Source: an uncultured Chloroflexia bacterium (GTDB lineage Bacteria; Chloroflexota; Anaerolineae; CG2-30-64-16). Taken from it: DNA of 64,000 nucleotides. A model generated the notes under the pieces. That model had not been told where the DNA came from. It saw nothing but the letters and a program-made list of their open reading frames with translations, and did not search any database. The stretch is from positions 96,001-160,000 of the forward strand of contig CAWEMM010000008.1 in the NCBI GenBank assembly GCA_963810095.1, read 5' to 3'. The number at the start of each line of letters is the position of its first letter. Position 1 is the stretch's first letter. Of this stretch, positions 2,301 to 45,832 are shown piece after piece. A program made the translations under genes and the position numbers.

Positions 2301-2320
2301 TCGTGTGTACGTTTCACTAT

Positions 2321-5357: not shown

Positions 5358-5358
5358 A

Positions 5359-6114
5359 ATGAGTCCGACTACCTACATCATCAGCGCCGTGTTGGTGTTC
5401 GTCTTCTCCGGCCTGCTGGCGATGGCCGGGCTGGGCGCGGCATTTCTGTTCGTGCCGCTCTTCTACTATCTCGGCGTCCCGCTGGCCGAGGCCACCCCGA
5501 CCGCCCTGCTGTTGAACGTCGTAAGCCTGTTATTTGCCACGATCAACTACTGGCGCGGCAAGCTGATCAACTTCCGGGTTGGGCTTCCGGTTTTGGTCAC
5601 AGCCGTGATCCTGTCGCCGCTCGGCGCGCGGCTGACACCGCAGATCGACAAGACAGTGCTGCTCGGACTGTTCGCGGCATTTCTGATTTTCGCCGGGTTC
5701 ATGATGCTATTCTACCGGCCGAAGAAACGCGGAGAGCCGCTCAGTCGGACGGTTGAGGTGAGCGCCGGCGTGGGCATCGGCGGCGTGGCGGGCTTCCTGG
5801 GCGGCCTGCTCGGCGTGGGCGGGGGCAATTTTATCCTGCCCGTGCTGAACTGGCTGGGGCTGGATGCAAAGGTGGCGGCTGGCACGACTGCGTTGGTGGT
5901 GGTCTTCGCATCGTTCTCGGGCTTTCTGGGTCACGCCACACTCGGCGGACTCGACCCCGTGTTCATTGGCATCATGGCTGTGATGGCTGCGGCTGGCTCC
6001 ATCGTCGGCTCACAACTGATGAAGACGAAGCTGTCCAGCGCACAACTCAAGCGCATGATCGGCGTGTTGCTGTTGCTGATCGCCGCCAAGATGATCTTTG
6101 ATCTCGTGAAGTAA
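5359..6114 (+). CDS. TauE/SafE-family sulfite exporter
   Basis: GLGAA and GLLGVGGG repeats, about 8 TM helices. Confidence 0.85.
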   Translation: MSPTTYIISAVLVFVFSGLLAMAGLGAAFLFVPLFYYLGVPLAEATPTALLLNVVSLLFATINYWRGKLINFRVGLPVLVTAVILSPLGARLTPQIDKTVLLGLFAAFLIFAGFMMLFYRPKKRGEPLSRTVEVSAGVGIGGVAGFLGGLLGVGGGNFILPVLNWLGLDAKVAAGTTALVVVFASFSGFLGHATLGGLDPVFIGIMAVMAAAGSIVGSQLMKTKLSSAQLKRMIGVLLLLIAAKMIFDLVK

Positions 6115-21571: not shown

Positions 21572-21622
21572 CTAGATCAAGCACGGGGGCCAGTGCAGGT
21601 CTGACCAGGCGCACAACCGTAT

Positions 21623-23033
<1,411 letters not shown>

Positions 23034-23039
23034 GTGCCC

Positions 23040-23660
23040 ATGACGCGCTTCGTCCTGGTTCGGCACGGTCAGACGGAGTGGAACCGGGTCGAACGGTTCC
23101 GCGGACGGGCCGATGTGCCGTTGAACGACGCCGGGCTGGCGCAGGCGGAGGCGACCGGGCGGCGGGTGGCCGAGGAATGGCAGCCCGCCGCCGTGTACGC
23201 CAGTCCGCTTAGCCGGGCATACGTGACGGCGGAAGCGATTAGCGTACGCTGCGGCCTGCCGGTGGCGCCGTTGGCCGGCGTGATCGATATCGATTACGGG
23301 GAGTGGCAGGGACTGACGCCCGAGGAGGTCGCCGCCCGCTGGCCAGACCTGCTGCACGCCTGGTATACCGCGCCGCAGACGGTGCAGGTCCCCGGCGGTG
23401 AGTCGCTGGCGGGACTGCGCGAGCGGGCCATGCGGTCTCTTTGTGAGCTGGTGGACCGGCACCGTGACGAGACAGTCGCGGTCGTGAGCCACACGGTGGT
23501 CAACCGGGTGATCCTGTTGGGCATCCTCGGGCTGGGCAATGAACGGTTTTGGCGGCTGCGGCAGGACAACTGCGCAATCAATGTGTTCGACGCGGACGCC
23601 AGCGATTTCACGCTGGTGACACTAAACGATACCAGCCATCTGCGCTGCGCTGAGAAATGA
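23040..23660 (+). CDS. Histidine phosphatase / phosphoglycerate-mutase family
   Basis: LVRHGQTEWN, SPLSRA, GGES, VVSH. Confidence 0.9.
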   Translation: MTRFVLVRHGQTEWNRVERFRGRADVPLNDAGLAQAEATGRRVAEEWQPAAVYASPLSRAYVTAEAISVRCGLPVAPLAGVIDIDYGEWQGLTPEEVAARWPDLLHAWYTAPQTVQVPGGESLAGLRERAMRSLCELVDRHRDETVAVVSHTVVNRVILLGILGLGNERFWRLRQDNCAINVFDADASDFTLVTLNDTSHLRCAEK

Positions 23661-23682
23661 GCCGCCGCGCACCTGGAACGAG

Positions 23683-24234
23683 GTGACCGTGAATAACTTA
23701 TGGCTTGAGCTGCGCATGGGGCCGAAAGCGCCTGATATCGTATATGCCATCGTCGAGTCGCCCAAGGGCCAGCGGAACAAGACGGAGTATAACATCAACA
23801 GTGGTGCGCTCGTGTTGAGCCGCACGCTCGCCTCGTCGCTGCACTACCCGGGCGACTATGGGCTCATCCCGCAGACCTTCTTCGAAGATGGTGAGCCCAT
23901 GGACATCCTGACCATGACCGGCGAGCCGACTTTCCCCGGCTGCGTCATCCAGGCGCGCCCCGTGGGCATTCTGCGACTGATGGACGCCGGCCATCACGAC
24001 GACAAGGTGCTGGCGGTGGCTGCCACGGACCCACTCTTCGCCGAGTACCAGGCGCTGAAGGACATCCCCCCTCACTTCCTGCGCGAGGTGCAGCACTTCT
24101 TCGAGACGTACAAAGACCTGGAGGGCGGCAAGCGCGCGCAGGCGATGGGGTGGGAGGACGCGGCGGCGGCCAAGGAGGCCATCCTGCGCGCCCACCAGGT
24201 GTTCTTGGAGCGTTTCAGTCTGAAGGGCCTGTAG
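23683..24234 (+). CDS. ppa: Family I soluble inorganic pyrophosphatase (DGEPMD variant)
   Basis: VESPKG, K.E, YPGDYG, DGEPMD, DDK, FFETYK. Confidence 0.92.
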   Translation: MTVNNLWLELRMGPKAPDIVYAIVESPKGQRNKTEYNINSGALVLSRTLASSLHYPGDYGLIPQTFFEDGEPMDILTMTGEPTFPGCVIQARPVGILRLMDAGHHDDKVLAVAATDPLFAEYQALKDIPPHFLREVQHFFETYKDLEGGKRAQAMGWEDAAAAKEAILRAHQVFLERFSLKGL

Positions 24235-24322
24235 GACAGCGGCATCGTAGGGCGCCTGAGAGACGAGCCTATGAGCCGCGAGCGCCTGGTGTGGAGGCGT
24301 GCAGCAATGCAGAGGGGAGTGC

Positions 24323-24697
24323 ATGACGAGGTTCCTGTTGATTGGCCTGGGCGGCATGGTGGGCGCGAATGTGCGCTACTGGCTGCAGCAATGGGCTGCC
24401 AACCGCTGGGGTGCGGCGTTTCCCTATGGGACGTTGATCATCAATGTGAGCGGGAGTTTCATCCTCGGTTTCTTCATCGTATTGGTCACCGACCGGCTCG
24501 CGGTCTCGCCCAACTGGCGTTACCTGATTGCGGTCGGGCTGTTAGGCGGCTACACGACCTTTTCGTCGTTCACGGTCGAAACGCTTACGCTGGCCGGGAG
24601 CGGGCGCCTGCTGCCCGCGTTGTTGTATCTGGGCGGCAATGTGGGGCTTGGCCTCATCTTCGCCTATCTTGGCATGGCACTGGCACGGGCGCTTTAG
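24323..24697 (+). CDS. crcB: Fluoride channel Fluc/CrcB
   Basis: GANVRY, PYGTLIIN, GLLGGYTTFSSF. Confidence 0.95.
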   Translation: MTRFLLIGLGGMVGANVRYWLQQWAANRWGAAFPYGTLIINVSGSFILGFFIVLVTDRLAVSPNWRYLIAVGLLGGYTTFSSFTVETLTLAGSGRLLPALLYLGGNVGLGLIFAYLGMALARAL

Positions 24698-24749
24698 GAG
24701 CGCCTGCGAGCGGAGCACGCGCTCCTGGCAGAGCGTTCGGAGGTGCGAG

Positions 24750-26026
24750 ATGGAAATCGTCGGGACTGCCAAGAAAGTGACGGTATACATCGGCGAGAGC
24801 GACCGCTGGGCCGGTAAGCCGTTGTACATGGCGATCTTGGAGGTGCTCAAGGCGGCCGACTGCGCGGGGGCAACAGTAACGCGAGGCGTCGCAGGTTTCG
24901 GCGCGCACAGCCGCATCCGGACCGCAACCATCGTCGACCTGTCGCCCGACCTGCCCCTCATCGTGGAGTGGGTCGACGACCCGGGGCGGGTCGAGCGTGT
25001 CATGCCGAAGCTGATCGAGATGGTCGCCGAAGGCATGATCACCTGCTCGGAGGTCGAGGTGCATGACTTACGGGCATCGCGAGCTGCGCCGGCTGCGGGC
25101 CTCGGCGCCGGTGCATGACTTGATGAGTCGCGAGGTCCGTTCTGTGCGGCCAGACACGAGCGTGGCGGATGCCGTAGAGATGCTGATCGGCAAGGCCTAT
25201 AAGGCGCTCCCCGTCGTCGACGATGAGCGCCGCGTGGTCGGGATCCTCACGGACGGCGACGTGCTGCGGCGATTGGGACTCCCGGCTGCTGGCGTGCAGT
25301 CGGCACTGACGCGCGCGGAGCTCGGCCGGGAGCTCGAGGCGCTGCGCCACAGCGGGCAGACGGTCAAGGATATCATGGTGAGCCCGGTGGTAACGACCAC
25401 GGAGGATGCGCCAATCGCCCAGGCCGTCAAAGTGATGACACAGCGGGGCATCAAGCGGCTGCTGGTCGTGGATCGGGACGGCCGGCTCATCGGCGTGGTC
25501 AGCCGGGTCGACGTGCTCCGTGCGTTAGCTCAGCCGGCCGTGGCGGAGGCCCCCCAAGCCGAGGTGCGGCCGGGGCACCACGTCCAGGTACGCGACGTGA
25601 TGGTGACGGAAGTGCCAAAGGTGCACGTCGATGCTGGGCTCAACAAAGTCGTGGACCTGCTGGTCAGCTCGGCCGAGCGCCGCATCGTGGTGGTGGATAC
25701 GGATGAACGGGTACTGGGCATCATCACGGACGGCGATCTGATCAAGCGCGCCAGCGGGACCGAACGCAGCGGGTTGCTGGGCGCCCTGAGCCGCCGGCTT
25801 AGCAGTGCAGAGGGAGTCAACCTTGCCGCTCGGACCGCGGGCGAGGTGATGACGGCTAACCCCGTCACGGTGACACCCGAAACCCGCCTGTTGGATGCCC
25901 TGCAATTGCTCTTGCGCGCACAAGGTCAAGCGTTTGCCTGTCGTGGACGACACGGGGCGGCTCGTGGGTCTCGTCGGTCGGGGCGAGATACTGCAGGCGC
26001 TCGCTTCCGAGCTGCCTGAGGAGTGA
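24750..26026 (+). CDS. DUF190 (PII-like) domain fused to four CBS domains (frameshifts near 25060 and 25915)
   Basis: YIGESD...GATVTRGVAGFG...SPDLP, then CBS repeats LPVVD..VGILTDGD. Confidence 0.85.
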
Positions 26027-26027
26027 C

Positions 26028-26471
26028 GTGCTCAACACGGCGCAGCGCGCGGCGATCACGATCGGCCTGCGCGCCTTCGAGATGCACTTGCACGAGATCG
26101 CGCGCTGGCTGCGAGGCGCACCGGATGCCGGCGTTCTGTTTTGGGAGCACCTTGATTTCAGCGACGAGGTGCGCATACAGGCCGAGGAGCAAGTTGCGGC
26201 TGCGCTTGCCCTGGTCGCGGAGCTGGCCCAGCGTTTTGAACTGGAACGGACCCCAATCGACCTGGGGGCGAAGATCACGGGCATGATGAGCGTCGACTGG
26301 GCCGACCTGGTGGACCTGCAGGCGAGCAAACTGCGGCGCTACGGCGGGGTAGCGGCTGAATTGAGTGGTTTGCTGGACGCCGATGTCGAACGACTCGCGG
26401 ACACGGCGAAGGAGCTGGCAAAGCTCAGAGGGGCTCCGAGCGGACACGGGGCGGCAGAAGTAGATGGCTGA
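26028..26471 (+). CDS. Hypothetical helical protein
   Basis: Clean ORF closely coupled to its neighbours. Confidence 0.65.
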   Translation: MLNTAQRAAITIGLRAFEMHLHEIARWLRGAPDAGVLFWEHLDFSDEVRIQAEEQVAAALALVAELAQRFELERTPIDLGAKITGMMSVDWADLVDLQASKLRRYGGVAAELSGLLDADVERLADTAKELAKLRGAPSGHGAAEVDG

Positions 26472-27144
26472 GCAGGACACGCTATTCCACGAAATCTTGG
26501 ACGCGCTCAAGGCGGGTGGCTGCCCGATATGCCGGCTGGGACACCGTGCGCGCGACGCGCTACATCGACACGCTCAACTACGAGGGCGTCAACGATCCGG
26601 GCCTGCGCGAGAGCCTCCGCAAGTCGCGCGGGCTCTGCAACCGGCATGCGTGGGAATGGTCGCATGTGCGCGGCAGCCCGCTGGGTGTTGCCATCGTTTA
26701 CCAGAACCTGGTCCGGGACCTGGCCGAGGTGGTCGCGAACGGCAAGGCTCGCTACCAGAGCAAGGCCATGGCCGTCGAGGAGTCGGGGGGCCGCTGGCTC
26801 CTGCGGCACGCTGTCCAGCCTGCGTGGCCGAAGACGATGCAGGCGACCGTTATGCGACGACGCTGCTAGAAGTACCTCGAAGGCCGGAGATCGACGAGGT
26901 GTACGTCAGATCGGGCGGACTGTGTCTGCTACACTTACGGGTGGCCGTCAACTTAGCGGACGTCGGGCAGATCACGAAACTGGCGAACTGGCAGGCGGCC
27001 GTGTATCGCGGGCTGGACGAGCAGCTCGGCGAGTTCATCCGCAAGCACGACTACCGGTTCGCGGGCGAGCCGATGGAGGCAGAGAAAGACTCGTGGACGC
27101 GCGCCGTGGCGGCAATCGCGGGCCAGGAGGAAGACGTGCGTTAG
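26464..27144 (+). CDS. DUF6062-like Cys/His Zn-binding protein (frameshifted)
   Basis: CPIC...YEGVNDP..GLCNRHAW; CPAC...GLCLLH...FIRKHDYRF...SWTRA. Confidence 0.7.
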   Translation: MAEQDTLFHEILDALKAGGCPICRLGHRARDALHRHAQLRGRQRSGPAREPPQVARALQPACVGMVACARQPAGCCHRLPEPGPGPGRGGRERQGSLPEQGHGRRGVGGPLAPAARCPACVAEDDAGDRYATTLLEVPRRPEIDEVYVRSGGLCLLHLRVAVNLADVGQITKLANWQAAVYRGLDEQLGEFIRKHDYRFAGEPMEAEKDSWTRAVAAIAGQEEDVR

Positions 27145-27209
27145 CAGGGCGGCTGGCGGCATGCTCGCCTTGCTTACATCAATGAATACATTGTCTACAA
27201 GGAGCTTGC

Positions 27210-27644
27210 ATGACTTCCTTTCCAACCTGGTTCGTCTGGGCGCTTTTATCCGCCGTCTTCGCGGCGTTCACCGCCATCTTCGCAAAGATTGGCATTAAAG
27301 GCGTAGATTCAGACTTGGCTACGCTCGTGCGAACTGCAGTCATCATTGTCCTGTTGGCGGGCTTCGTTTGGGCAACTGGGAAGTGGAGTAACCCGCTTAC
27401 ACTCCCGCACAAGACCTTGCTATTTCTTGGACTGTCCGGCCTTGCCACTGGAGCTTCCTGGGTTTGCTATTTCCGCGCGCTCCAGATCGGAGATGCTTCG
27501 AAGGTCGCTCCCGTAGACAAGCTGAGCTTGGTGCTCGTCGCCATTTTTGCTTTCGCGTTGCTCGGCGAACGGCCAACACTCCGCGAATGGACGGGCATTG
27601 CGATGGTCGCGGGCGGCGTGCTTGTGCTCGCGCTTAAGAGATGA
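27210..27644 (+). CDS. Single-domain EamA/DMT transporter
   Basis: WALLSAVFAAFTAIFAKIG, SWVCYFRAL, VAPVDKLS. Confidence 0.88.
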   Translation: MTSFPTWFVWALLSAVFAAFTAIFAKIGIKGVDSDLATLVRTAVIIVLLAGFVWATGKWSNPLTLPHKTLLFLGLSGLATGASWVCYFRALQIGDASKVAPVDKLSLVLVAIFAFALLGERPTLREWTGIAMVAGGVLVLALKR

Positions 27645-27744
27645 GGCGAAGGGGACCTCCTGCGGTCATTGGGCAGACCGATCGTGAGCAGAACCCCAGC
27701 GTTTTGATGTTTGCGCCTTAGGTGCTAAGATGCGCCCAACTGAA

Positions 27745-27840
27745 TAGGGATGAGGCTCCCGGCCGGGGCGAACGCTCCGGTTGTCGCAAGACTGATAGCC
27801 TCTACCAGTGCGCTACGGCACTGGTAGAGGCTTTTTTGTT
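27745..27840 (+). ncRNA. Fluoride riboswitch 2 with terminator
   Basis: GGGATGAGGCTCCC, inserted hairpin, GTCGCAAGAC-TGATAGCCTCTAC; terminator ending GGTAGAGGCTTTTTTGTT. Confidence 0.9.
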
Positions 27841-27872
27841 GTTTAGGGTTGGATCGGATCGTGAGGCGAGGC

Positions 27873-29099
27873 ATGAGCGACGATGTCGACGGAATGGCGG
27901 AGAAGGTTCCGGCGGACGCGTGGCTGAACCGCAACGTGGTCGGCATGGCGCTGGCCAGCTTCTTCAGCGACGCGGGGCACGAGATGGCGACCGCGGTGCT
28001 GCCATTGTTCCTGGTAGCAATCGGCGCACCGGCCGCAGCGCTCGGTGCGATCGAAGGCGTGGCGGACGCCGTCTCCTCCTTCGTGAAGCTGGGCTCAGGC
28101 TGGCTTAGCGACCAACTCGGGCGCCGCAAGCCGATCGCCGTTACGGGGTACGTGCTAACCGGCGTGACGACAGGATTGTTCGCGCTGACAACTACATGGC
28201 CGCAGGTGTTGGTGGTGCGAGCCGCTGGCTGGTTCGGCCGCGGCATGCGCGGTCCAGTGCGCGATGCGATGCTGGCAGATTCGGTTCCTGATGCGGCGCG
28301 CGGTCGGGCCTTCGGCTTCCACCGAGCCGGCGATACACTGGGCGCTATCGTCGGACCGTTGCTCGCCCTGCTCATGCTGCGACTGTTGGGCGGGCGCGAG
28401 ACGCCGGAAACGACCTACCGCCAGATCTTCTGGCTGACTCTCATCCCTGGTCTGCTGGCTGCACTCGCATTCGCAACCTTAGTGAAGGAACAGCGGCGGA
28501 CGGGCAACGGCAAGTTCAACCTGTTCCATGCAATCGGACGGCTCCCGACGCCCTTTCGACGATTCCTCCTTGGGGTAGGGATATTCGGAGCAGGCGACTT
28601 CGCACACAGCTTGCTGACACTCCGCGCCGCGACCATGCTGGCGCCGTCGCTCGGCGTAAACCAAGCTGGCCAGGTCGCAATCGGCCTCTACGCAGTGCAC
28701 AACATCGTCTACGCTGCGCTGTCTTACCCAATAGGCTCGCTCGGAGACCGCATCGGCAAGCGAGGCCTCCTCGCCTTTGGCTACAGCCTCGCGGGCGTAA
28801 TGGCGCTCGGCTGGATCTTCGCCGTGCCCTCAGTCTGGTACCTCGGCGTGTTGTTTGCGCTCGGCGGGGCGTTCATCGCGGCCGAGGATACGCTCGAAGG
28901 CGCGCTGGCCGGAGATCTGCTGCCGGTTGACGTGCGCGGCACGGGCTACGGCGTTCTGGCCACCGTGAACGGCGCTGGGGACTTCCTGTCGAGCCTGCTC
29001 GTCGGCCTGTTGTGGTCGGCCGTGAGCCCTGCCGCCGGCTTTGCTTATGCAGGTGTGCTGGCTCTTATCGGGGCGACCATCGTGTTTCGAGTGCGATAG
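27873..29099 (+). CDS. MFS transporter
   Basis: About 12 TM helices; GWLSDQLGRRK motif A; RGRAFGFHRAGD. Confidence 0.9.
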   Translation: MSDDVDGMAEKVPADAWLNRNVVGMALASFFSDAGHEMATAVLPLFLVAIGAPAAALGAIEGVADAVSSFVKLGSGWLSDQLGRRKPIAVTGYVLTGVTTGLFALTTTWPQVLVVRAAGWFGRGMRGPVRDAMLADSVPDAARGRAFGFHRAGDTLGAIVGPLLALLMLRLLGGRETPETTYRQIFWLTLIPGLLAALAFATLVKEQRRTGNGKFNLFHAIGRLPTPFRRFLLGVGIFGAGDFAHSLLTLRAATMLAPSLGVNQAGQVAIGLYAVHNIVYAALSYPIGSLGDRIGKRGLLAFGYSLAGVMALGWIFAVPSVWYLGVLFALGGAFIAAEDTLEGALAGDLLPVDVRGTGYGVLATVNGAGDFLSSLLVGLLWSAVSPAAGFAYAGVLALIGATIVFRVR

Positions 29100-29152: not shown

Positions 29153-30735
29153 ATGGCCGTCAGCGTGCCAGAGACTCGGATCAGCACGTCCAAGACGGCG
29201 TTCTGTAGCGTCCTGTTTCTGCGACCCGAGGATAGGACCGAGAGCGAGACGCGCGAGGAGCCGGCCTGCTTCGGCGATCTGAACCTCGACCAGGTCGTCG
29301 ATGCCGTGACAATCGGCAAGCAGGGCTATGACCTCAAACGCTTCTACTATACGCCCTTGCACGACGTGGACGCGATCCAGTACCGCCACGAGGTCATGCA
29401 GGACCTCGAACGCCGGACGCTGTTCGAGAAGATCGAGGAGTTCGCGCGCCGGATGCGGACCATGCGCGAGCATCTCAAGCAGGCCGAGAAGCTGTATTAC
29501 AAGCTGCAGAAGCAGCGCTGGTTCCTGGATGCGGTGAATACGTCTATTGCAGCGCCGTCCAGCCGCCTGGCCGAGGACCTGGCCGCGGAGAATCCGCAGT
29601 CGCGCGGGTTTGGAGCCCTGCGCGCCCACCTCGACGCGTACGTAGCCGGCGAACCTTTCCAGGTGCTCGCGGGCGAACTGCACGAGCTGCTCTCAGGCCT
29701 GGCCGGCGTGCGCTATGCGTTCGTGCTCAAGGGCCAGACGGTGAGCGTGCGGAAGTACGAGGAGGAGACCGACTACAGCGCCGAAGTGCTGCGGACTTTC
29801 GAGCGGTTCAAGCAGGGCGCGGTCAAGGAGTACCTGGCCGAATTTCGCGAGCCAGTGGACATGAACCACGTCGAAGCACAGGTGCTCGAGTTGGTCGCCC
29901 GGCTCTACTCTGACCTCTTTGGTCGCATCGAGAGTTACTGCACCCGGCACGTCGATTTTATCGACGAGGTGCTTGGCGTCTTCGACCGCGAGGTGCAGTT
30001 CTATATCGGGTACATCGACTTCATGCGGTCGTTGCAGCGGCGGGGCTTGCGGTTCTGCTACCCGGTCGTGTCGGCTGACAGCAAGGCTGTATCCAGCCGT
30101 GAAGGGTTCGACGTGGCGCTTGCGCGCAAGCTGGCGGGCGAAGAAGCGAACGTGGTCTGCAACGACTTCAGCATGCAGGGGGTGGAGCGGGTATTCGTGG
30201 TATCGGGGCCGAACCAGGGTGGGAAGACCACGTTTGCCGCGGGCTTTCGGCCAGCTGCACTACCTCGCCAGCATCGGCTGTCCCGTGCCGGGCCGAGAAG
30301 CCCACCTCTACCTGTTCGATCAGCTCTTGACGCACTTCGAACAGGAGGAGAACCTCACTAACCTGCGCGGCAAACTGGAAGACGAACTGGTGCGCATCCA
30401 TGAAATCCTCCAAGCGGCGACGCCGCGCAGCATCGTGATCATGAACGAGATCTTCACGTCGACGACGCTGCAGGACGCGGTCTTCCTGGGCGAGCGGGTC
30501 ATGCAGCGCATCCTCGACCTGGATCTCCTGTGCGTCTGCGTGACCTTCATCGACGAGCTGGCTGCGCTGAGCGACAAGATCGTCAGCATGGTCAGCACCG
30601 TGACGCCGGAGAACCCGAGCATGCGGACCTACAAGATCGTGCGGCGGCGGGCCGACGGGCTCGCGTACGCGATTTCGATCGCCGAAAAGCATCGCTTGAC
30701 CTACGAAGCGTTGAAGGAGCGCCTCGCGACCGTGA
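29153..30735 (+). CDS. MutS-related ATPase A (domain V, no mismatch-binding domain; frameshift near 30240)
   Basis: DLNLDQ N-terminus; [10 protein letters not shown]; GCPVPG; MNEIFTST; YAISIAEK. Confidence 0.85.
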
Positions 30736-32253
30736 AAGCCTTCCTGATGTATCCGCAGCGGGATTTCGACGTGAAGCAGGCGTTGCCGCCGAATGCAGAA
30801 GCCCTGGTGCAGGACCTCGAGCTCAGCACCTTGTTCGCCGCGATGGCGCACGGCGACAAGTTCCTGTTCGAGGTGGCCCGGGTTGCCGTTTTGTCCGGCG
30901 CGGACGCCGACGTGCGCACGATCCTGTATCGGCAGGGCGTGCTCAAAGACTGCCTGAACCATGCGGCGCTCATTCGGCAGATCTACGACTTGGCTGTGGA
31001 CACCATCGAACGCGAGAAGCATGTGTGGTGGGGCGCATTCGGGAGAATGCCGGACACAATACTGCACCGGTCGGTCGAAGTGCTTGAGCTATTCGTCGGC
31101 GTGCTCAAGACGTTGAGGCGGATCGCCGACGAGCATGTTTCAGGCTTCGAGTCGGAGGGCTTCAAGGCGTTCTTCGCCATGCTCCAGCGGGAGCTCGACG
31201 ACGTGTTCTTTGCCGAGGTCCAGCAGCACGTGCGCAATCTCAAGTTTCGCGACGGCATCCTGGTCAGCGCGCAGCTCGGCCAGGGCAACCGGGGGGTGGA
31301 CTACGTGCTGCGAAAGCCGAACCGCAAGCAAGGCAACTGGTTCCAGCAGGCATTGGGGCCGCGGCCGACCGCCTATTCCTTCCGTATCGCGGATCGGGAC
31401 GACAACGGTGCGCGGGCCCTCTCCGAGTTGCGGGACCGGGGCGTCAACCTGGTGGCAAACGCGGCCGCCCAGTCATGCGACCACATCCTTTCGTTCCTCA
31501 CGCTGCTGCGCACCGAGCTCGCCTTCTACGTGGGTTGTCTGAACCTGCACGACCGGCTACAGGAGAAAGCCACGGCAACGTCCTTCCCGGTTCCCTTGCC
31601 GCCGACGGAGTGCCGGCACACGGCGCGCGGGCTGTACGACGTTTGCCTGGCACTCGTCGTCGACCAGCCGGTGGTGGATAACGACCTGGACGCTGACGGC
31701 AAGAACCTTGTCGTCATCACCGGCGCGAACCAGGGGGGCAAGTCTACCTTCCTGCGGGCCATTGGCCTGGCCCAGACGATGATGCAGTGCGGCATGTTCG
31801 TGCCGGCCGAGGCGCTGACAGCGAACGTCGCGGATCGCGTCTTCACGCACTATAAGCGCGAGGAAGATGAGAGCATGAAAAGCGGCAAACTCGACGAGGA
31901 GTTGGGCCGGATGAGCGAGATCGTGGACCACATGACCCCGGATTCCCTGCTGTTGCTAAACGAGTCGTTTGCCGCTACGAACGAGCGGGAGGGATCGGAG
32001 ATCGCGAGGCAGATCGTCACCGCACTGCTGGAGCGCGGGATCAAGCTCTTCTACGTGACGCACCTATACACATTCGCCCGCGCGATGTATGATAAGAATC
32101 TATCTCATGCCCTGTTCTTGCAGGCCGAACGGCGCGAGGACGGCGAGCGCACGTTCAAGCTGGTTGCCGGTACGCCATCGCAAACGAGCTTCGGCCCGGA
32201 CCTGTACGAGAAGGTTTTTGCACGGGACGGCTCGGTCGGCCGAGGTTTCGTAG
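30732..32253 (+). CDS. MutS-related ATPase B (reads in frame with both neighbours in this assembly)
   Basis: GTG with AAGGAG; KAFLMYP..DF; [10 protein letters not shown]; [12 protein letters not shown]; VTH; SFGPDLY. Confidence 0.85.
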
Positions 32254-32270
32254 ACGCCGGAGTATCGCCC

Positions 32271-33959
32271 TTGGAAACCATTGTCACGGTCCTTCGGGAC
32301 GGCAAGCCGACAAACATCGGAGAGGACGCGCTGCGCAAGGGAGACACCTTGCTCCTCCAGGCGGGCGAACTCGTCGCGGCCGATCTGAAGCTGGTCGGGG
32401 CCAGGGGCCTGGAAGTCGACGAATGGGACCTGACCGGCGAGATCGTGCCCGTTGCGAAGCGCGTCGACGGACACGAGGACGTCTTCGTTTACCGCGGCAG
32501 CCGGGTGACACGCGGGAATGGCAGCGGCGTGGTCACGGCCGTCGGGGAAGCGACAGAGTACGCCCAGTGCGTGAAGCAGTCCTGGGAGCGCACGCGTTAT
32601 CGCCGGCCGTCGGCTCCTCACCCGGGGCTCCTTCGTCGTGTTGGCCCTCCTGGCGCCGCCCTTTGCCATGGCCGCGGTGCGGCACGAGAACGGGATCTTG
32701 CTGGGGCTCCTCGCCGCCGCCTTGGCCGTCCTCGCTGTCGTTCTTGAGAACAGCGCGCTGTTCGACTATGCGGTGACCGGGAAGGAAGTCAGCCGGATCG
32801 AGCAACAGGGCATTCAGATGCGTGACGTTGGTGCACTTGAAGTGATGGAGCGCCTGAATGTCCTGTGCGTGGACAAGACCGGCGTCCTGACGACCCGCGA
32901 CCTGAAGGTGAAGGAGATCTACCTGGCAGATGGTCCCTGCGAGCTGGCGGTACTTTGGCACCAACGAGGAGCCGGCCACGCTGGTCCGCACCGGCTGCGC
33001 GCTCTGCAACGACGTAATGTATGCCGAGAAAGCGAGCCTGGCCGCGCCGATCGATCGGGCCCTCATCGCGTTCGCGCGGGCCAGCGGGACCGACATCGCG
33101 GACGCGCACCAGACCTATCACAGGGTGTACGACAAGCCGTTCGATTCCGAGGAGCGCTACATGGCCTGTGGCTTCGAATCTGGCGAGAAGACCGTGTTCT
33201 TTGCCAAGGGCGACCCGGACGTCGTGCTGAAAATGTGCGGCACGTACAGCACGCCCTCGGGCAGTCAGCAGAAGCTAGACTTGCCTTTCTGGATATCCAC
33301 GCGAACTCATGCCGAATCGATCAGCAAGGCGGGCGACGTGGTCATGGCGCTGGCCTACGGCGTCGGGGGATCGGCGACACCTCCGCTGCACTACACGTTT
33401 CTCTGCCTGATCCAGCTCGAGAATCCGCTTCAGCCAAACGTGCCCGGCACGCTGCGCGAGCTCAGGGGGAGGGCATCCGTACTGTGATGCTGACCGGCGA
33501 TAGGACAGAGACCGCGTCAAAATCGCGGTCGCGGCCGGCATTGCCTCGGACGAGAGGCTGTGTCTGACCGGCCGGCTGATGGCGCACATGGGCGCGTTTG
33601 ATATCCGCGAGCAGGCAACCTTCATCCCCATCTTTGCGCGGCTCCTGCCATCACAAAAGGCGCTCATCGTCAGGCTATTGCAGCAGAAGAACAAGGTCGT
33701 GGCCATGGTGGGTGACGGGGCAAACGACACACTGGCGTTGAAGGCGGCGGACGTCGGCATGGCCTTTGGCAGCGACGCGTCGCCCATGGCGAAGCGGGTA
33801 GCCCCCATCCTCATCAACGACCTGGCCGATCTGGTTACGCTTGTTGAAGGCGGCAGGCGCATTCACGAGCGCCTGGGTGAACTGGCCATGTTCCGGGTCG
33901 CGCTGCTGATCGTGATGTTCCTGGGGCTGTATGGGTGGGTATATAGCTTGTTGAGATAG
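32271..33959 (+). CDS. Atypical, membrane-reduced P-type (HAD-IC) ATPase (several frameshifts)
   Basis: A-domain VLRDG...LTGE, DKTGVLT phosphorylation site, PFDSE, KG, MLTGD, GDGAND; only about 3 hydrophobic segments. Confidence 0.75.
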
Positions 33960-37266: not shown

Positions 37267-38892
37267 TCAATTGTGACGGACAACGCGGAAGAGGATGCAA
37301 GAGGTGACAGAGAAAGGACCGGCGGGAGAACGGTCGCCGGGGGTCCTGGCTGCCCAGGCGCCCACGCGACCCCGGCACAGTGGAGGCGCTGCGGGCTGTG
37401 CCGTCAGGTACGTCCAGCGTCCACGCTCCAAGACGCTCGAGCAGGCCCTCAATCGATCCGCCCGAAAGCCTGCCCAGGCCTCGACGGCGGACCGCGCGAC
37501 GTCCTCCGAAACGGGTGCGGCACTGTAGCGCGCTTGCATATAGGCGTCCGTAATCGTAGCCAGCGCGGCGCCTTGCTCCGGATGCGCAGCGCTCAGGCTC
37601 GCCAGGTACTCCAGCGGCGTGACGCCGGGCGGCGACCGCCCGCCCCGTCAGCAGCCCATGCCAGCAACGCCTGGTAGACCCGCCGGACCTGCGCGGCGGG
37701 ATCGTCTCCGACGACGGACGCGAAGGGCGGGGGCGCCTCAGTGCGTTTTCGGCCTTTAAGCAGGTTGCCCAGCTGCGCGTGGAGCAGGTCGAGTGAGAGC
37801 ACGCTCTCGCGCTGCTCTTCGACATCCTCCTCGCTGTAGGTGCGAAAACGGCGGAACGCCAGGGCGAACAAGAAAAAGACGAGCGCCGCAACGAGTGCGG
37901 CCCCGACTACGCGGAAGATAAGGTAGGCGGTCGGCGACAGGCCGGCCGGCTGTTGCTGTAGATCACCAAACTGGTCGGCCAGGCTCGGGGGTGTCTGGAT
38001 GTTGACATCCGATAGGGTGAGCGGCCGGAAGTGAAGGACCAGGCCGACGAGGCCGCCTACTTTGAACACGACCCAGGCGATGGCAAGGATAACCCAATAG
38101 AGGATTCGTGCGACTATGTCGAGCACGCCGGACAGCGCGGCCATAAGCTTGCTGACGGCCGAGGGCGTAAAGAGCTGCGCCAGCAGCAGGCCGCTCACTA
38201 ACAAGGCTGCGATGACCACGACCACGGTGACAGCCCAATAGCGTGTCAGGCGGAAGGCTGATGGGTCGGGCGCCCCTTGAGCGCGCGCGGTGCTGCGCAA
38301 GCTGGCGATGGCGAGGCTTGCGAGCCCCAAGGCAAAGAACGCCAGGATGGGCGACAGCATGGCGCCCAGGCCTACGGGATCAAGCGCATAGTGCCAGATT
38401 GCCGCTCCGCCCAGGGCAAAGACGCCCAACGCGAAGTTGGCCGCATAGGTATCGTAGCCGGGGGTATCGCGGCCCGCAAGCAAGCCCCACCACCACAGCC
38501 ACGCTGCGAAGATGACGATCACAATGGCCTCGAGCGGCTGGTTTGCGAGCGAGAATAACCAGGCGCGGCTCCAGAGCGGGAAGCGCGCCGCTGCCGAGCG
38601 CCGCGTAGAGGGTGAGGGCGATCGCGAGCAGGCCGGCGCACGCGACAAGCAGCTGGCCTTGGCGCTCCGAGCGAATCCGGAAGGCGGCGGTCTCGGCTGC
38701 GGCTGTACTCAGAGCCAGGAGCGCAAGGATGATGGGGAAGCCGATCAGCTCACCGTGGCCAGGACCCCGGACGGATGCACTAAGGACGAAGAGCAGGGCA
38801 TAGACCCAGACGGCTCGCATGCCGGCAAGGAGATACGGCAGAAGGCCGTTGTCGATCGGGTGCCACTTGCGATCATGCAGGTCGAGACGCAT
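37267..38892 (-). CDS. DUF4129-type multi-pass membrane protein (frameshifted; 3' end uncertain)
   Basis: Many TM helices, then VRRVYQALL...TPLEY...ITDAYMQARYS C-terminal motif; third gene of the moxR operon. Confidence 0.7.
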
Positions 38893-40105
38893 CGAGCACG
38901 AGCTCCGTCAGGTGGTTGTAGGCCGAGCGGCCGCCGATCCAGAAGGTCGGAATGTCAGGAGAAAACGTGCGCGGTGGCGCGTCCCCGACGGTGACCAGCC
39001 CGACCGGATGGCGGGCTGCGCGCACGTCCAGCAGTACGGCGGCAAGGTCGGTATTGGGCACCGCGGTAATGACAAGGACGGTTGCGCCGAAGGGGAGCCG
39101 CGGCGTCTCGACCTGGAGCATGTGTTTGAAATCGGCTGCCGTGAGCCCGGACAAGCGGGCGAGGCCATCCAGGATATCGAACCAGTGATCGGGCCGGCGC
39201 GAGGGCGGGAGGCGCAGGGTGAGCGCTCCCGTCCCGCGCCACCCCCCGTTCACGTAAAGTCCGACCGCATGGCGCTGGTCGAGCAAGTGGCGCGCCAGTG
39301 ACGCCGCGGCACTGATCCCGTATTCGAGGTATTCGGGTACGTAGCCCGGCGAATCGGGTAGTGTGCGAAGGTCAAGGAACAGGCCGGTCACCTGCGCTGC
39401 GCTGGGATCGAAAGTCCTGGTCTGGAGCTCGCCCCGCCGGGCGGTGGCGCGCCAATGAATCGTGCGCAAGCTGTCGCCTGCTGCGTAGGCACGGACGCCG
39501 GAAATCCGCAGCGGATCGTCGGCCACGCGGCGCAAGGCCTTCTCGTCGCCGAAAGGATACCCGGCGGGCAGCCGGAACGGTGCAACGGGCACGACGCGTG
39601 GGTAGACGATGAGGCGGTCTACTTGGAGCACCTCCTGCTGTTGATCGCGGAACCCGAACATATCGCCTGAGCTAATCTCGGCCGGGCCAAATTCCAGCGC
39701 GCCGCGGTGCACGGCCTGGATCCGGTACCGCTTGCGGATGCGTTGGTAGAAGCGTAGCGAGACGATGTTGATCAGCAGGCGGCGCCCCGGCTTCCAGTGA
39801 TAGTGTAGCGTCCCGCGCAGGAGCTTGACCTCGTTCGGCCACTCATCCTCGACCTTGAGCCAAGATAGCGGCAGCGGCTTAGCGTTGACGATCTCGACCG
39901 TCACGTCCGTCTCCTCCCCAACAAAGAGCCGGGGTTCGCCAAAGTGGCGGGTGTAGGTGACCCCCGCGAGGGCGTAGCGGTCCCAGAGCCCGGTTACGAT
40001 CGCGAGCAGGAGCAGCAAGACGCCGGCCAGGAAGAGCAGGGGGTTGCGCAGCACGAGCGCAATTGCGAGCGCCAGGAACGTCAGCCACTTGAGAAGACGG
40101 CTCAC
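38873..40105 (-). CDS. DUF58-domain protein
   Basis: N-terminal TM; VYPR; GVRAYAAGDSLRTIHWRATARRGEL. Confidence 0.9.
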   Translation of the reverse strand: MSRLLKWLTFLALAIALVLRNPLLFLAGVLLLLLAIVTGLWDRYALAGVTYTRHFGEPRLFVGEETDVTVEIVNAKPLPLSWLKVEDEWPNEVKLLRGTLHYHWKPGRRLLINIVSLRFYQRIRKRYRIQAVHRGALEFGPAEISSGDMFGFRDQQQEVLQVDRLIVYPRVVPVAPFRLPAGYPFGDEKALRRVADDPLRISGVRAYAAGDSLRTIHWRATARRGELQTRTFDPSAAQVTGLFLDLRTLPDSPGYVPEYLEYGISAAASLARHLLDQRHAVGLYVNGGWRGTGALTLRLPPSRRPDHWFDILDGLARLSGLTAADFKHMLQVETPRLPFGATVLVITAVPNTDLAAVLLDVRAARHPVGLVTVGDAPPRTFSPDIPTFWIGGRSAYNHLTELVLDASRPA

Positions 40106-41079
40106 GGGGTGGAGGGCTCCAGCGACCAGGTTTCTTCTACCGGCACAGGCGTGCGGGCGGCGATCTCTAGCAGCACATCGTTGATCGAACGGCCACGCAC
40201 GCGGGACTGGCTGCTGGCAAGCAGGCGGTGAGCCAGGACGGGCTGGAGCAGGCGCTTGACGTCGTCCGGCAGCACGAAGACGCGGCCGGAGAGCGCGGCA
40301 AGCGCCTGGCCAGTGCGGTAGAGAGCGAGAGAGCCGCGCGGGCTCGCGCCCAGCTGCAGAGCTTCATGTTCGCGGGTGGCCCGCACGAGGCGCAGGATGT
40401 AGGTTTCTATGGCCGGATGCACGAAGACCTGGCGGATCGCCTGTTGAAGCCAGAGGATATCCTCCACCGAGGCAACGGGCCGGAGTGTGGCGAGAGGCTG
40501 CTGCTCGCGGAAGCGGCGCAGAATCTGACGCTCATCGTCCTCGCCGGGGTAGCCGAGCGCCAGGCGCAGCAGGAAACGGTCGACCTGGGCCTCGGGCAGC
40601 GGGAACGTGCCCTCCAACTCGATGGGGTTCTGCGTCGCCAGGACGAGGAAGGGCCGGGGGAGTGGGCGGGTGACGCCGTCGACAGTGACCTGGCGTTCTT
40701 CCATCGCCTCGAGCAGGGCTGACTGAGTACGCGGTCCGGCGCGATTCACCTCGTCGGCGAGCAGGATCTGTGCCATAAGCGGGCCGGGGCGATACTCGAA
40801 ATCGAGCGTGCGCTGATTGAAGACGCTCACGCCCGTGATGTCGCCAGGCAACAGGTCGGGCGTGAACTGGATGCGCTGGAAGCTGCATCCGAGCGAGCGG
40901 GCGAGCGCCTTGGCAAGCGTGGTCTTGCCGATGCCCGGCACATCCTCGAGTAGCACGTGGCCTTCACAGGCCAGCGCTACGAGCAGTAGCTCGATGACCT
41001 CGTCCTTCCCCACGATGACCCGTGCCACGCTTTCACGCACGTCGCCCGCGATGCACTGCACCCGTTCGATGTCGGTCAT
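40102..41079 (-). CDS. moxR: MoxR-family AAA+ ATPase
   Basis: LLEDVPGIGKT, RIQFTPDLLPGD, DEVNRA, ATQNPIE.EGTFPLPEAQ.DRF. Confidence 0.95.
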   Translation of the reverse strand: MTDIERVQCIAGDVRESVARVIVGKDEVIELLLVALACEGHVLLEDVPGIGKTTLAKALARSLGCSFQRIQFTPDLLPGDITGVSVFNQRTLDFEYRPGPLMAQILLADEVNRAGPRTQSALLEAMEERQVTVDGVTRPLPRPFLVLATQNPIELEGTFPLPEAQVDRFLLRLALGYPGEDDERQILRRFREQQPLATLRPVASVEDILWLQQAIRQVFVHPAIETYILRLVRATREHEALQLGASPRGSLALYRTGQALAALSGRVFVLPDDVKRLLQPVLAHRLLASSQSRVRGRSINDVLLEIAARTPVPVEETWSLEPSTP

Positions 41080-41135
41080 GCCAAACGGCCTCCTTCTTTA
41101 ATTCTGCCAGTCTCCTGCGGCTGGCCACATAGGGC

Positions 41136-41215
41136 AAACAAAAAGCCTCTACGGAACCGGTCCCGTAGAGGCCATCAGTCGGCAGTCCGACGGTTGACAG
41201 CGAGCCTCATCGCAT
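41136..41215 (-). ncRNA. Fluoride riboswitch 4 (minus strand) with terminator, upstream of moxR
   Basis: Reverse complement: GCGATGAGGCTCGC-TGTCAACC-GTCGG/CCGAC-TGATGGCCTCTAC, then GCCTCTACGG...CCGTAGAGGC-TTTTTGTTT. Confidence 0.9.
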
Positions 41216-41237
41216 GGCGACTGCGTCGCCGAGCAAC

Positions 41238-41288
41238 ATTCTATGCTTGCGATAGGTCGTTGTCAACTGCGCGCCGATCTGGTATAAT
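41238..41288. promoter_or_regulatory. Bidirectional sigma70 promoter with overlapping -35 boxes
   Basis: Plus strand TTGTCA(41260)-N17-TATAAT(41283); minus strand TTGACA(41266-41261)-N17-TAGAAT(41243-41238). Confidence 0.8.
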
Positions 41289-41302
41289 GGGACTAATCGA
41301 AT

Positions 41303-41399
41303 AAGGGATGAGGCTCCCGGCCGGCGCATCGCGCACGGCCTGTCGCAGGACTGATAGCCTCTACCGGCGCGTTGCCGCGTTGGTAGAGGCTTTTTTGTT
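41303..41399 (+). ncRNA. Fluoride riboswitch 3 with terminator
   Basis: GGGATGAGGCTCCC...GTCGCAGGAC-TGATAGCCTCTAC...GGTAGAGGCTTTTTTGTT. Confidence 0.9.
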
Positions 41400-41416
41400 A
41401 CGGTGTGGAGGTCAGT

Positions 41417-42425
41417 ATGACGGCCCTGGATCGATTCGCAGATGAAGTAAAAGACATGGCGAGTCTCGCAGAACCCGTGCAAATCGCCATCGAAAAGGAG
41501 TTATTGCCCGGGGAGGTCGTGCGCCGGATCATCTACGCGCCGCCTCATGAGGGGGCGGCCCGCAGGCGCAGGGTGGGCGGGTGGCTTTCCTGGCGACCTT
41601 CCCCGGCGTGGGTCCTGGTGTTGAGTGACACCCGGCTGCTGCTAGCGACGATCGAAGCGGACGAGCCTGTCCCGACGGTAAGCGCGGCCCCCGTGGCCGA
41701 CATGCTTCGGATCGAGCTCGGCGAGATCCTCTTATACGCCTGGTTGGAATGGTCGTGGGCCGCTGACGGCGAGCTACGACAGGAGCGGGTCTATTTCAAC
41801 TCGGTGCGCGCAGATCTGTTCTCGAAGGTGGTGGAAACGGTTCGCGCGGATATCGTCGCGCAATCTGGTCTGCCGCTGGCGGGCCAGGAGCGCGACCTGG
41901 CCTCGTTCAAGAGTCTACCATTCAAGTTCGCGAACATCATTCCGCACTTTCTGCTCTTCCGCGGCGAGTATGCAGAAAGCGTCGTCTTTCAGCCGGCGAT
42001 CTGGGGGCGGCACCTGGGCCTTCTGCCCGTACAAGCGCGCGCCAGTAACCGTTGCTGTCTTGACGCCTCACTACCTGCTGTTCGTACAAGATGATCTGTC
42101 TCACCAGAAGGCAGCCTACGGAGTGATCGCCAGCTACTGTCCTCGCAATCGGGTGACAGCTCTCGAGCTCGATCGCAAGGAGAACGACGTAGTGCTGAAT
42201 GCGACGCTTCGGTGGCAAGAGGCCGAAGAGAAGCTGAGCTACCTCTTTGAAGCAGAGGCAGAGCCGAGGCTGCGGGCGTTGATTGCCACGCTGGAGGGAT
42301 CGACGAGCGTGGTGAAGATGGCTGGTCCCGATGCGGGCGAGGAATCGAGCAACGGCAGAGCGGAGACGAACGCCGGGGAAGATGGCGCCGAGATCGAACG
42401 AAGAGGCCTTGGGAGGCCGCAATAG
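41417..42425 (+). CDS. Hypothetical protein (frameshift near 42030)
   Basis: GGAGG RBS directly after riboswitch 3; ORFs 41405 and 41970 join. Confidence 0.65.
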
Positions 42426-44410: not shown

Positions 44411-44976
44411 TCCTACGACCGGTAGTGGTTCGCCGCTACCGGTCGCCTGTATTTAGAACACCTAACCAAACCCGGTCTGTCGGACGATTTGCGCTCAGAT
44501 GCACGCTGTCTGGCAAAATGGGTGGCGGCATTCAAGCGCAAGCTTGCCCGCGCCGACCCGTGGGCGACGGAGTTCCTCTGGGATCACGTCGTCGGGAAGG
44601 CGCCGGCCAGGCAGGAGCTCGGCGGCATGGAAGGCGAGCCGCTGGAGATCATCGTCCGGCACGTGGCGGTGCCACTGCCCGACCTCGCTTCGGTGGAGTG
44701 AGGCAGGTTCAAGCCCCTCCCGCTCCACGTTCACTTCGCAGGTGTCGCCGGCCCGTCGCTAGCCCGCCGGCGTACCTCCCGCCACGCCGGCCTAATCTGC
44801 GCTGCTCGTCGCTTGCGCTATGGCTAACGCAACGCCGAGCGTCAGTTTCCTGACGACCTGCGAGCTATTGTTGCTTCTTTTCCGGAGCGGCGTAGCGGCG
44901 CCTCCCGACCTCCAGCACGCCTCGCTTCCGGCGTCGCTCCAAGTGACCTGGTAACCGAAGAAGGTACATCGCAGTC

Positions 44977-45060
44977 GTGGCAGACAAGAACGGAACCACC
45001 GCCAAGAACGGCACGGCCGGTCCCCTCGGCTTCGAGGCGAAGCTGTGGGCGGCGGCTGAG
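44977..45060 (+). pseudogene. N-terminal remnant of type I RM methyltransferase HsdM
   Basis: GTG...KNG...LGFEAKLWAAA, then similarity ends. Confidence 0.5.
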
Positions 45061-45199
45061 CGAGCCGTGGTTATCATCGGGGGAGACGCGGCAGCGCTTG
45101 ATCGTGGGTACTGAGAAGAAGATCACCCAGGCGGGCATCGATGGATCAAGCACTAGGTTCGCTAGGTGCGGCTCGGTCGTAATTGCGGGGGCGGGACAT

Positions 45200-45832
45200 C
45201 GTCTGGTGGACCCATCCCAACCGACCACGTCACCGTGCTGCGCCGTCTTGGTCAGGGCGTGGACAAAGCAGCCGACCAGGAAGGCAAGACATTCAAATTC
45301 GAGGAAGCGCAGGGCGGTTTGATCCAGCATGATTTGGATGTTGGCCGGAAACTCGTCATCCGCCTCGTAGAAGACAACCCGCAAGGGGATTTTTGGCAGA
45401 ACTGCGAAGTCCCAGTACATGTTTGCCTTCCCATGCCTCTTCGGCTACCCCACCCAATTTCAGCGCTGCTTCGCCGAACTTGGCGTAGTCGTTACGGAAA
45501 CAGCGTTCTAGCGGTCGATTCATCAACCGGAGCTCTGTGTGAAGTCCGCCCCCCATTCCCGGTATGCTCTCGAACAAAACGAAACGGTTCTCCGGGTCTC
45601 CGCTGCCGCGCGATAGGAGGTAATAGAGAAGCACGCTGCGGTTGTTTACATTCACCGGTTGGCCGTCCAGCGGTTCGGCGCCGTCCACAGTAATACGATA
45701 GTCTCTCTCCAGGAAACTTGCTTGAATGCGTCCATCGACATAGCTGAGGCCGAGCCGTCTGGCAGCTTCTTGAAAGTCGCAGCCAGGGAGTCTGCTCACC
45801 AATCCGAGGTAAATTGAATCATAGCCCGTCAT
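45200..45832 (-). CDS. DUF3786-like protein (frameshift near 45420; 3' end uncertain)
   Basis: LLYYLL...FVLFESIPG; LPKIPLRVVFYEADDEFPA.IQIMLD. Confidence 0.7.

Follow-up and report, generated by a model that had tools for sequence, protein, structure and literature searches.

The leader in front of a moxR-DUF58-DUF4129 operon in an uncultured Chloroflexia bacterium is, judging from its sequence, very probably a fluoride ON-riboswitch that selection has repeatedly coupled to orthologous moxR operons. The operon lies on the minus strand of a 64,000-nucleotide (nt) stretch of DNA (assembly GCA_963810095.1, contig CAWEMM010000008.1, positions 96,001 to 160,000), which was analysed over its whole length and is called the window below. 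The link between the aptamer and moxR is real and recurrent, and it is confined to some lineages of one Chloroflexota class. The moxR unit is composed of the following elements (aa, amino acids; dG, folding free energy):

41238..41266, minus strand: sigma-70-like promoter of the moxR unit (TTGACA, 17 nt, TAGAAT; 11/12 consensus matches)
41159..41223, minus strand: fluoride (crcB-motif) aptamer in its compact form (RF01734, full model 1-64, 30.6 bits, E 2e-6)
41135..41173, minus strand: intrinsic terminator (13-bp stem 41173..41144 plus U-run; dG -21.4 kcal/mol)
41089..41096, minus strand: ribosome-binding site GAAGGAGG, read from the sequence, 9 nt ahead of the moxR ATG
40102..41079, minus strand: moxR, encoding an intact MoxR-type AAA+ ATPase of 325 aa (AAA_3 213.7 bits, E 8.6e-64; AAA_lid_2 81.2 bits, E 4.5e-23)
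38873..40105, minus strand: gene of an intact DUF58 protein (PF01882) of 410 aa (38.1 bits against a Pfam cut-off of 23.4)
37267..38892, minus strand: third gene, split over three frame pieces (38892-38572, 38576-37626 and 37644-37267); its product is a polytopic membrane protein with DUF4129 at the C-terminus

Leader of the moxR operon

The leader region contains two promoter-like sites, compared with 0.2 expected in shuffled sequences, and the -35 box of the moxR promoter overlaps that of a divergent promoter on the plus strand. The 5' arm of the terminator covers the final 15 nt of the aptamer, namely its 3' GCCUCUAC strand. A leader platform in which the terminator shares the 3' strand of the aptamer predicts an ON switch. 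The moxR ATG at 41079 is 79 nt from the aptamer end and about 55 nt from the end of the U-run. A previous sequence-only reading of this DNA had placed a minus-strand riboswitch and terminator about 60 nt upstream of overlapping moxR, DUF58 and DUF4129 genes; the distance was a fair estimate, and the overlaps amount to 4 nt between moxR and the DUF58 gene and 20 nt between the DUF58 gene and the third gene. Parts of the leader are covered by contigs from four sequencing runs of three studies, which differ from it little or not at all.

A gathering-level Rfam scan of the whole window gave no match, and a permissive scan of positions 40900-41700 gave the moxR aptamer. A covariance model was built here from seven compact aptamers of the lineage. 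The lineage-tuned model scores the moxR aptamer at 71.1 bits, the moxR aptamer itself being part of the model seed. With this model, four aptamers are recognised in the window: 41159..41223 on the minus strand and 21616..21688, 41295..41370 and 27737..27811 on the plus strand. Consistently, a fuzzy search for the invariant core over the whole 6.1-Mb genome found exactly four aptamers, all of them in the window and within 20 kb of one another, and none in a reversed-genome control.

The conserved core GAUG...CUGAU...CUAC is invariant across 12 aligned elements, and every core position is kept in the moxR aptamer. Covariation of P1 and P3 was found in an alignment of 16 rows, 14 of which are real aptamers: 95.3% of cells pair, compared with 32-53% when the partners are slid, and five of nine pairs change on both sides, in an alignment that was fitted to the model and therefore favours structure. 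The pseudoknot strands GAGGC and GCCUC are complementary and both are invariant among the real aptamers. Because both strands are invariant, the pseudoknot shows no covariation and is consistent with the alignment rather than independently proven by it. Terminators are present in all 12 riboswitches examined (dG -16.7 to -30.6 kcal/mol), each starting at the GCCUCUAC strand of the aptamer. At orthologous positions, the Rfam model scores the aptamers of genomes G020 and G013 at 40.7 and 37.8 bits, respectively, which pass the gathering score of 34, and that of G029 at 27.6 bits.

This type of aptamer is associated with fluoride-toxicity genes, namely the enolase, pyrophosphatase (PPase) and crcB genes in the window and CrcB among the first open reading frames (ORFs) behind metagenomic aptamers. 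Because the aptamer at 21616..21688 precedes a textbook fluoride operon, it provides an internal positive control for the divergent aptamer type. With the Rfam model, two of the four genome aptamers fall under the gathering score and the two that carry an extra P1-P3 hairpin go undetected. Fluoride riboswitches are thus probably under-counted in Chloroflexota, because the gathering score excludes all four genome aptamers and the model misses hairpin-bearing forms. The hairpin of the forms missed by RF01734 measures 13-50 nt (41295-41370 and 27737-27811 in the window; L061:1869-2107 elsewhere).

Recurrence of the aptamer-moxR link

Rfam and own-model matches were crossed with gene coordinates for 31 orthologous operons, including that of the window. 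Nine of these operons follow an aptamer that has the same kind of terminator platform. Four linked operons belong to the window's family (G000, G013, G020 and G029). In G073 and G115, moxR is separated from the aptamer by a DUF6062 gene. The remaining ones are those of G069, of G154, which has no DUF58 match, and of G094, which has a second, divergent aptamer. The linked operons occupy at least four separate places in the DUF58 tree, corresponding to at least four gains or losses, and the clade of the window has a support of 99/97. Because related genomes are not independent, the evidence amounts to about four events and not nine. Counting moxR loci preceded by crcB-motif aptamers had been suggested by the sequence-only reading, and the count shows that the link is not an isolated case. 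In the class sample (151 genomes; best 150 MoxR matches), at least 8 of 73 aptamer matches precede an orthologous moxR operon. DUF58 orthologues in other genera of the family are 54-64% identical, and the seven other genomes of the genus have only paralogue-level DUF58 matches of 35-37%.

The sequence-only reading had made its case depend on homologous operons carrying the riboswitch. This holds for the nine operons above, and the other 22 of the 31 have no aptamer by model or by core pattern; in the 16 aptamer-negative loci scanned, no other Rfam family was found upstream. The orthogroup is therefore likely to have a function independent of fluoride control, because most of its operons lack the aptamer. 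Among the distant MoxR matches listed (51-67% identity; Chloroflexota, Bacillota, Actinomycetota and others), none of 80 loci has an aptamer in a pattern-limited scan. A metagenome scan with the aptamer core gave at least 84 matches in 80 loci; two of these loci overlap on a single contig, so that one pair of matches is counted twice. MoxR is the product of none of the 78 first downstream ORFs among the matches listed, and the sole moxR fragment among the loci listed is on the opposite strand. These 78 first ORFs are distributed as follows:

Na+/H+ exchanger: 16
NuoH-like: 8
CrcB: 6
DUF6062: 4
Usp, HEAT, dynamin-like and MFS: 2 each
enolase, PPase and MutS: 1 each
small membrane protein with DUF4129: 1 (L227; contig end)
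no family: 32

The link is not general to MoxR-DUF58 systems, because 22 of the 31 orthologues, the distant MoxR loci listed and the metagenomic aptamers listed are without it. The proposal of the sequence-only reading that the riboswitch would give a physiological cue for a MoxR subclass is supported for this orthogroup.

The gene order of the triad is kept over 30 fetched loci with two exceptions, L056 (G154) without a DUF58 match and L057 (G121), in which the third gene was undetected; moxR and the DUF58 gene are adjacent in 29 of the 30 (exception G154). No conserved neighbour gene was found around the triad among 129 ORFs of 30 loci. The exceptions to these variable flanks are DUF6062, in or beside the operon in four of eight linked relatives, and TerC, after the triad in two of eight. 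In the window, the triad is followed by a weak PadR-like gene and then by the gene of an ABC solute-binding protein. Two loci have a different composition. L056 of G154 (2125-5865) contains an aptamer, moxR, a gene of a DUF4129 membrane protein and TerC, with no DUF58 gene. The metagenomic locus L227:1501-2422, which belongs to another lineage, has an aptamer of this type and, directly behind it, the gene of a small membrane protein with DUF4129 at its C-terminus; the contig ends there.

MoxR and DUF58 proteins and their paralogues

MoxR of the window has both a Walker A (PGIGKT) and a Walker B (LLADE) motif. The DUF58 protein consists of two N-terminal hydrophobic helices and a von Willebrand factor A (vWA)-like domain. 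A functional metal ion-dependent adhesion site (MIDAS) of vWA domains has the motif DxSxS. This motif was not found in the DUF58 protein of the window, in its 13 aligned orthologues or in the housekeeping paralogue. The MIDAS position is degenerate (D-L-R-T in the window) and reads D/N-x-x-T in all 13 orthologues and in the paralogue. The alignment shows no MIDAS difference between fluoride-linked and other DUF58 proteins. NCBIfam provides no name for the DUF58 protein, the third protein, the divergent protein or DUF6062.

None of the 325 MoxR columns separates aptamer-linked from unlinked orthologues, and the linked and unlinked DUF58 proteins differ at six weak, conservative positions. Because the differences are absent in MoxR and weak in DUF58, no specialised fluoride protein is marked. 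As far as the sequences tell, the difference between linked and unlinked operons is regulatory.

The genome has two enolases, two PPases, two crcB genes and five AAA_3 genes. The second copies of enolase, PPase and crcB are unregulated. Two further moxR-DUF58-DUF4129 triads are present on contig C6, both without an aptamer.

Third gene and frame breaks

The three pieces of the third gene lie in frames -2, -3 and -2 and together match intact orthologues (484 and 492 aa) from one end to the other, with 46-53% identity and no internal stops. DUF4129 (PF13559) is in the C-terminal piece 37267..37647 (E 4.4e-13; about 1e-13 in intact orthologues). The true stop of the gene is uncertain, the orthologues ending near the position aligned to 37465. 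The frame breaks are the following:

38572..38580, minus strand: first frame break of the third gene, at a CCC run
37626..37644, minus strand: second frame break of the third gene, at C/G runs, restoring the first frame

A third frame break is in the divergent gene on the plus strand, where the window has one base more at 42026 than the contigs of runs X1 and X4; one of these two contigs is at least 99% identical over that piece. Because independent contigs of two runs lack the base, the frameshift at 42026 is an assembly error. Because this break is an assembly error and other genes are split as well, the breaks of the third gene are probably artefacts. All three frame breaks are at C/G runs, and 24.7% of all positions have such a run within 3 nt; the placement fits run-associated indels and does not tell error from mutation. 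Near the third-gene breaks, one X2 contig ends at 38591 with no indels reported there, and read coverage of the breaks is uninformative. Other split genes of the window encode DUF3786, in two ORFs (44842-45832, minus strand), and a P-type ATPase, in pieces (29919-33959, plus strand), the latter seemingly fused in frame to a MutS-like ORF. A paralogous DUF58 gene elsewhere in the genome is also split (L149:4765-6088).

The third protein is modelled with confidence as a membrane protein made of helices throughout, the C-terminal ones forming a bundle (predicted local distance difference test score, 83.1). No sequence match in the PDB and no Foldseek match at E<=0.001 were found for this protein, the best template-modelling (TM) score being 0.33. 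Its Atlas neighbours are Chloroflexota DUF4129 clusters, and TgpA-type transglutaminase proteins are weak structural neighbours (TM 0.24-0.44). In the intact orthologues and in the two paralogues of the genome, Pfam detects only DUF4129 and neither TgpA_N nor a transglutaminase core. The DUF4129 domain (model m452173715e36, residues ~391-484) is predicted to be a four-helix bundle. It is nearest to HEPN-domain structures (2hsb: Z 8.2, root-mean-square deviation 3.5, 94 residues), a likeness below the meaningful level for helical bundles and a lead only.

Other fluoride riboswitches in the window

The fluoride-riboswitch regulon of the genome comprises four units: the moxR triad, the enolase-PPase-crcB operon with its downstream genes, an MFS transporter unit and a divergent uncharacterised gene. 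The elements of the last three are listed here:

21616..21688, plus strand: fluoride aptamer of the enolase operon (Rfam 26.7 bits, sub-threshold), with the same kind of terminator
21616-27644, plus strand: classic fluoride operon with the aptamer, enolase, a histidine phosphatase (phosphoglycerate-mutase type), PPase, crcB, DUF190, CBS, an unknown gene, DUF6062 and EamA
26464-27144, within the plus-strand enolase operon: window copy of DUF6062
27737..27811, plus strand: fourth fluoride aptamer (own model; missed by Rfam), with a terminator to ~27845
41260..41288, plus strand: divergent sigma-70-like promoter (TTGTCA, 17 nt, TG-TATAAT)
41295..41370, plus strand: second intergenic fluoride aptamer, with the extra P1-P3 hairpin (own model R1 32.1 bits, E 2e-7; core pattern)
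41356..41400, plus strand: terminator of the divergent riboswitch (16-bp stem plus U-run; dG -29.7)
41417..42425, plus strand: divergent gene with no Pfam family, read through a 1-base insertion at 42026 and aligned in two frames to an intact 301-aa orthologue in G013

The aptamer of the enolase operon is about 20 kb from that of moxR. The aptamer at 27737..27811 precedes an MFS transporter gene (27849..29099), and a MutS-domain-V gene and a P-type ATPase gene are located downstream on the same strand. The second intergenic aptamer is absent from the permissive Rfam scan of 40900-41700 at E<=10. Back-to-back aptamer pairs like that of the window are also present in G013 and G094. The base composition of the region, looked at with a genomic island in mind, shows no deviation. 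G001, which is 75% complete, is the only congener sharing the enolase-crcB part (90% identity), and no moxR orthologue was found there.

Two families recur behind these riboswitches. The divergent protein of about 300 aa has no Pfam or NCBIfam family, and its structural neighbours in the Atlas are tandem bacterial PH-domain proteins (TM 0.53-0.61); in one neighbouring Chloroflexota cluster, 72% belong to a pyrophosphatase family. DUF6062, which has two CxxC motifs, recurs directly behind fluoride aptamers (loci L052:333-1031, L053:5621-6319, L061:259-1824, L038:11859-12581, L150, L170, L194 and L221, besides the window). G073 and G115 carry it in the moxR operon, G094 (with two copies) and G013 in the divergent riboswitch unit. 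A full-text literature search gave no paper mentioning DUF6062.

Proposed mechanism and alternative explanations

It is strongly supported that transcription would start at the sigma-70-type promoter and run into the fluoride aptamer. From the behaviour of this riboswitch class, the terminator is expected to form without fluoride, so that transcription would halt about 55 nt ahead of moxR. The Mg-fluoride complex would lock the pseudoknot and block the terminator, thereby allowing the translationally coupled moxR, DUF58 and DUF4129 genes to be transcribed. The three products may form a membrane-anchored AAA+ remodelling module, with a cytosolic MoxR hexamer, a DUF58 protein acting as a vWA-like adaptor anchored by two helices, and the polytopic DUF4129 protein. 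This module would do the same job as its unregulated orthologues, and fluoride would raise the demand for it by poisoning the Mg-nucleotide chemistry of the ATPase or of a membrane client. The cell would then make more of the module under fluoride, as it would with its riboswitch-controlled second enolase and second PPase.

Taken as a whole, this is the best explanation, with a chance slightly above even. An increased supply of a generic MoxR module whose Mg-nucleotide chemistry or client is impaired by fluoride is a tentative proposal, somewhat short of an even chance. Increased supply is favoured because the proteins are unspecialised and because the other riboswitch units largely provide extra copies of fluoride-sensitive enzymes. 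The logic of making more of an inhibited enzyme is stated for enolase in the available text of PMC11139923. Several points weigh against this explanation. The moxR aptamer remains under the Rfam gathering score, which is the threshold of family membership, and a U-U mismatch takes the place of its outermost P1 pair. As assembled, the third gene has a broken frame, and the operon would be decaying in this genome if the breaks were real. The 22 orthologous operons without an aptamer have the same standing, as does the position of the regulated triad as a distinct paralogue class, with about 35% DUF58 identity to the housekeeping triads, rather than a recent spare copy. The compensation analogy with the second enolase is weakened because the regulated triad is an old, distinct orthogroup. 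Moreover, an inhibition of the MoxR ATPase or its client by fluoride draws on general knowledge of Mg-nucleotide enzymes.

A more ambitious explanation would make the orthogroup a true fluoride-stress machine, that is, a membrane-anchored AAA+ remodeller that repairs or matures fluoride-poisoned Mg-dependent proteins, and which several Chloroflexota lineages have independently put under the riboswitch, often beside DUF6062 and the PH-like unknown protein. Both parts together are regarded as doubtful, with perhaps one chance in a few.

A dedicated rescue chaperone, which would remodel enolase, PPase or P-type ATPase trapped by Mg-F or ADP-Mg-F and restore their activity, is unlikely. In its favour, at least four clades have gained or kept the link, the neighbouring riboswitch units encode exactly such fluoride-sensitive enzymes, and MoxR ATPases elsewhere mature or remodel specific clients, such as RipA in the case of MoxR1 according to the accessible part of PMC12067865. 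However, no substitution marks the aptamer-linked MoxR or DUF58 proteins, and in 22 of 31 operons orthologues that look identical do without fluoride control. Membrane anchors are present in two of the three proteins, while enolase and PPase are soluble, and no client gene is conserved beside the triad.

Equally improbable is an assembly or maturation factor whose client, for example a transporter, TerC or a P-type ATPase, would be a membrane protein needed under fluoride that the module assembles or loads with a metal. Metal-cofactor insertion is a recurrent theme of MoxR proteins. The DUF58 and DUF4129 products are membrane proteins, G115 and G154 have TerC behind the triad, and DUF6062 with its two CxxC motifs is encoded in the operons of G073 and G115 and in the divergent units of G094 and G013. 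However, the companions differ between clades and none is present in all nine linked loci, and the genes after the triad in the window are those of the weak PadR-like protein and the ABC solute-binding protein.

That the aptamer or the operon is a relic, no longer functional in this genome, is very unlikely: the sub-threshold aptamer score, the mismatched outer P1 pair, the two frame breaks of the third gene and the lack of an orthologue in all seven other genomes of the genus (best DUF58 matches 35-37%) point to decay, but all invariant core positions and the promoter, terminator and ribosome-binding site are intact, as are MoxR and DUF58, the pieces of the third gene align with their orthologues free of stops, the neighbouring frameshift at 42026 is an assembly error with DUF3786 and the P-type ATPase split as well, and contigs of four runs from three studies agree closely or fully with those parts of the leader that they cover.

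Significance

To our knowledge, MoxR/DUF58 operons are among the most widespread bacterial modules without a known trigger or client. A ligand-specific riboswitch ahead of such an operon would be an unusually clean sign of when the cell wants the module, and the link ties a poorly understood chaperone-like system to fluoride stress. The fluoride regulon known so far is made up of exporters, genes for pH and ion homeostasis and additional copies of inhibited enzymes; an AAA+ remodelling module would be a functional class new to it. Should the orthogroup prove to be a fluoride-stress machine, orphan MoxR/DUF58 systems of the MRP type would gain their first defined physiological cue and a route to their clients, and fluoride resistance would gain a proteostasis arm. 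The leader is short and self-contained, so that the claim is open to direct in vitro and reporter testing. The window also flags two uncharacterised families that recur behind fluoride aptamers, DUF6062 and the PH-like protein.

Comparison with known systems

The moxR leader resembles the RF01734 riboswitch in P1, P3, the pseudoknot strand, the GAUG...CUGAU...CUAC core and a terminator overlapping the 3' end. Overlapping terminators of the crcB motif were described by Weinberg 2010 (PMC2864571, in the part of the text available). RF01734 riboswitches are known from crcB, eriC-F, enolase and PPase operons; the difference here is that a MoxR/DUF58/DUF4129 triad would be regulated and that the lineage aptamers are divergent. 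In the accessible text of PMC11139923, PMC7266159 and PMC2864571, the genes of the fluoride regulon include exporters, antiporters, PPase, HAD phosphatases, enolase, formate hydrogen lyase, MutS and K+/Cl- transporters. The same portions of this 2024 review, of the 2020 orphan-riboswitch review and of the crcB-motif discovery paper, respectively, mention no MoxR-type gene. A full-text literature search gave no report of a fluoride riboswitch or crcB with MoxR or DUF58, one unrelated co-mention apart, and the supplementary gene lists of Baker et al. 2012 may hold a MoxR-type entry.

The mycobacterial moxR1 operon of the MRP subfamily has the same order of an AAA_3 MoxR, a DUF58 protein and a membrane protein, and the functions of DUF58 and of the MoxR-DUF58 pairing are described as unknown in MRP-subfamily operons (PMC12067865, as far as its text is available). 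In contrast, the third gene here encodes a polytopic DUF4129 protein in place of the vWA membrane protein of the moxR1 operon, the MIDAS of DUF58 is degenerate, and the operon is placed under a putative fluoride riboswitch. The bifidobacterial PFNA cluster and TgpA-type clusters also share the order of an AAA ATPase, DUF58 and a membrane protein (PMC12067865, same portion). TgpA-type proteins combine TgpA_N, a transglutaminase core and DUF4129, whereas the third protein here lacks the first two by Pfam, and at best it may be a core-less relative of TgpA.

The presence of regulated and unregulated MoxR triads in one genome resembles the riboswitch-controlled extra copies of enolase and PPase. 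The triad differs from them as an old, distinct orthogroup, and the fluoride sensitivity of the module is assumed. What is new in this operon is the evolutionarily recurrent combination of a known riboswitch with a known gene module.

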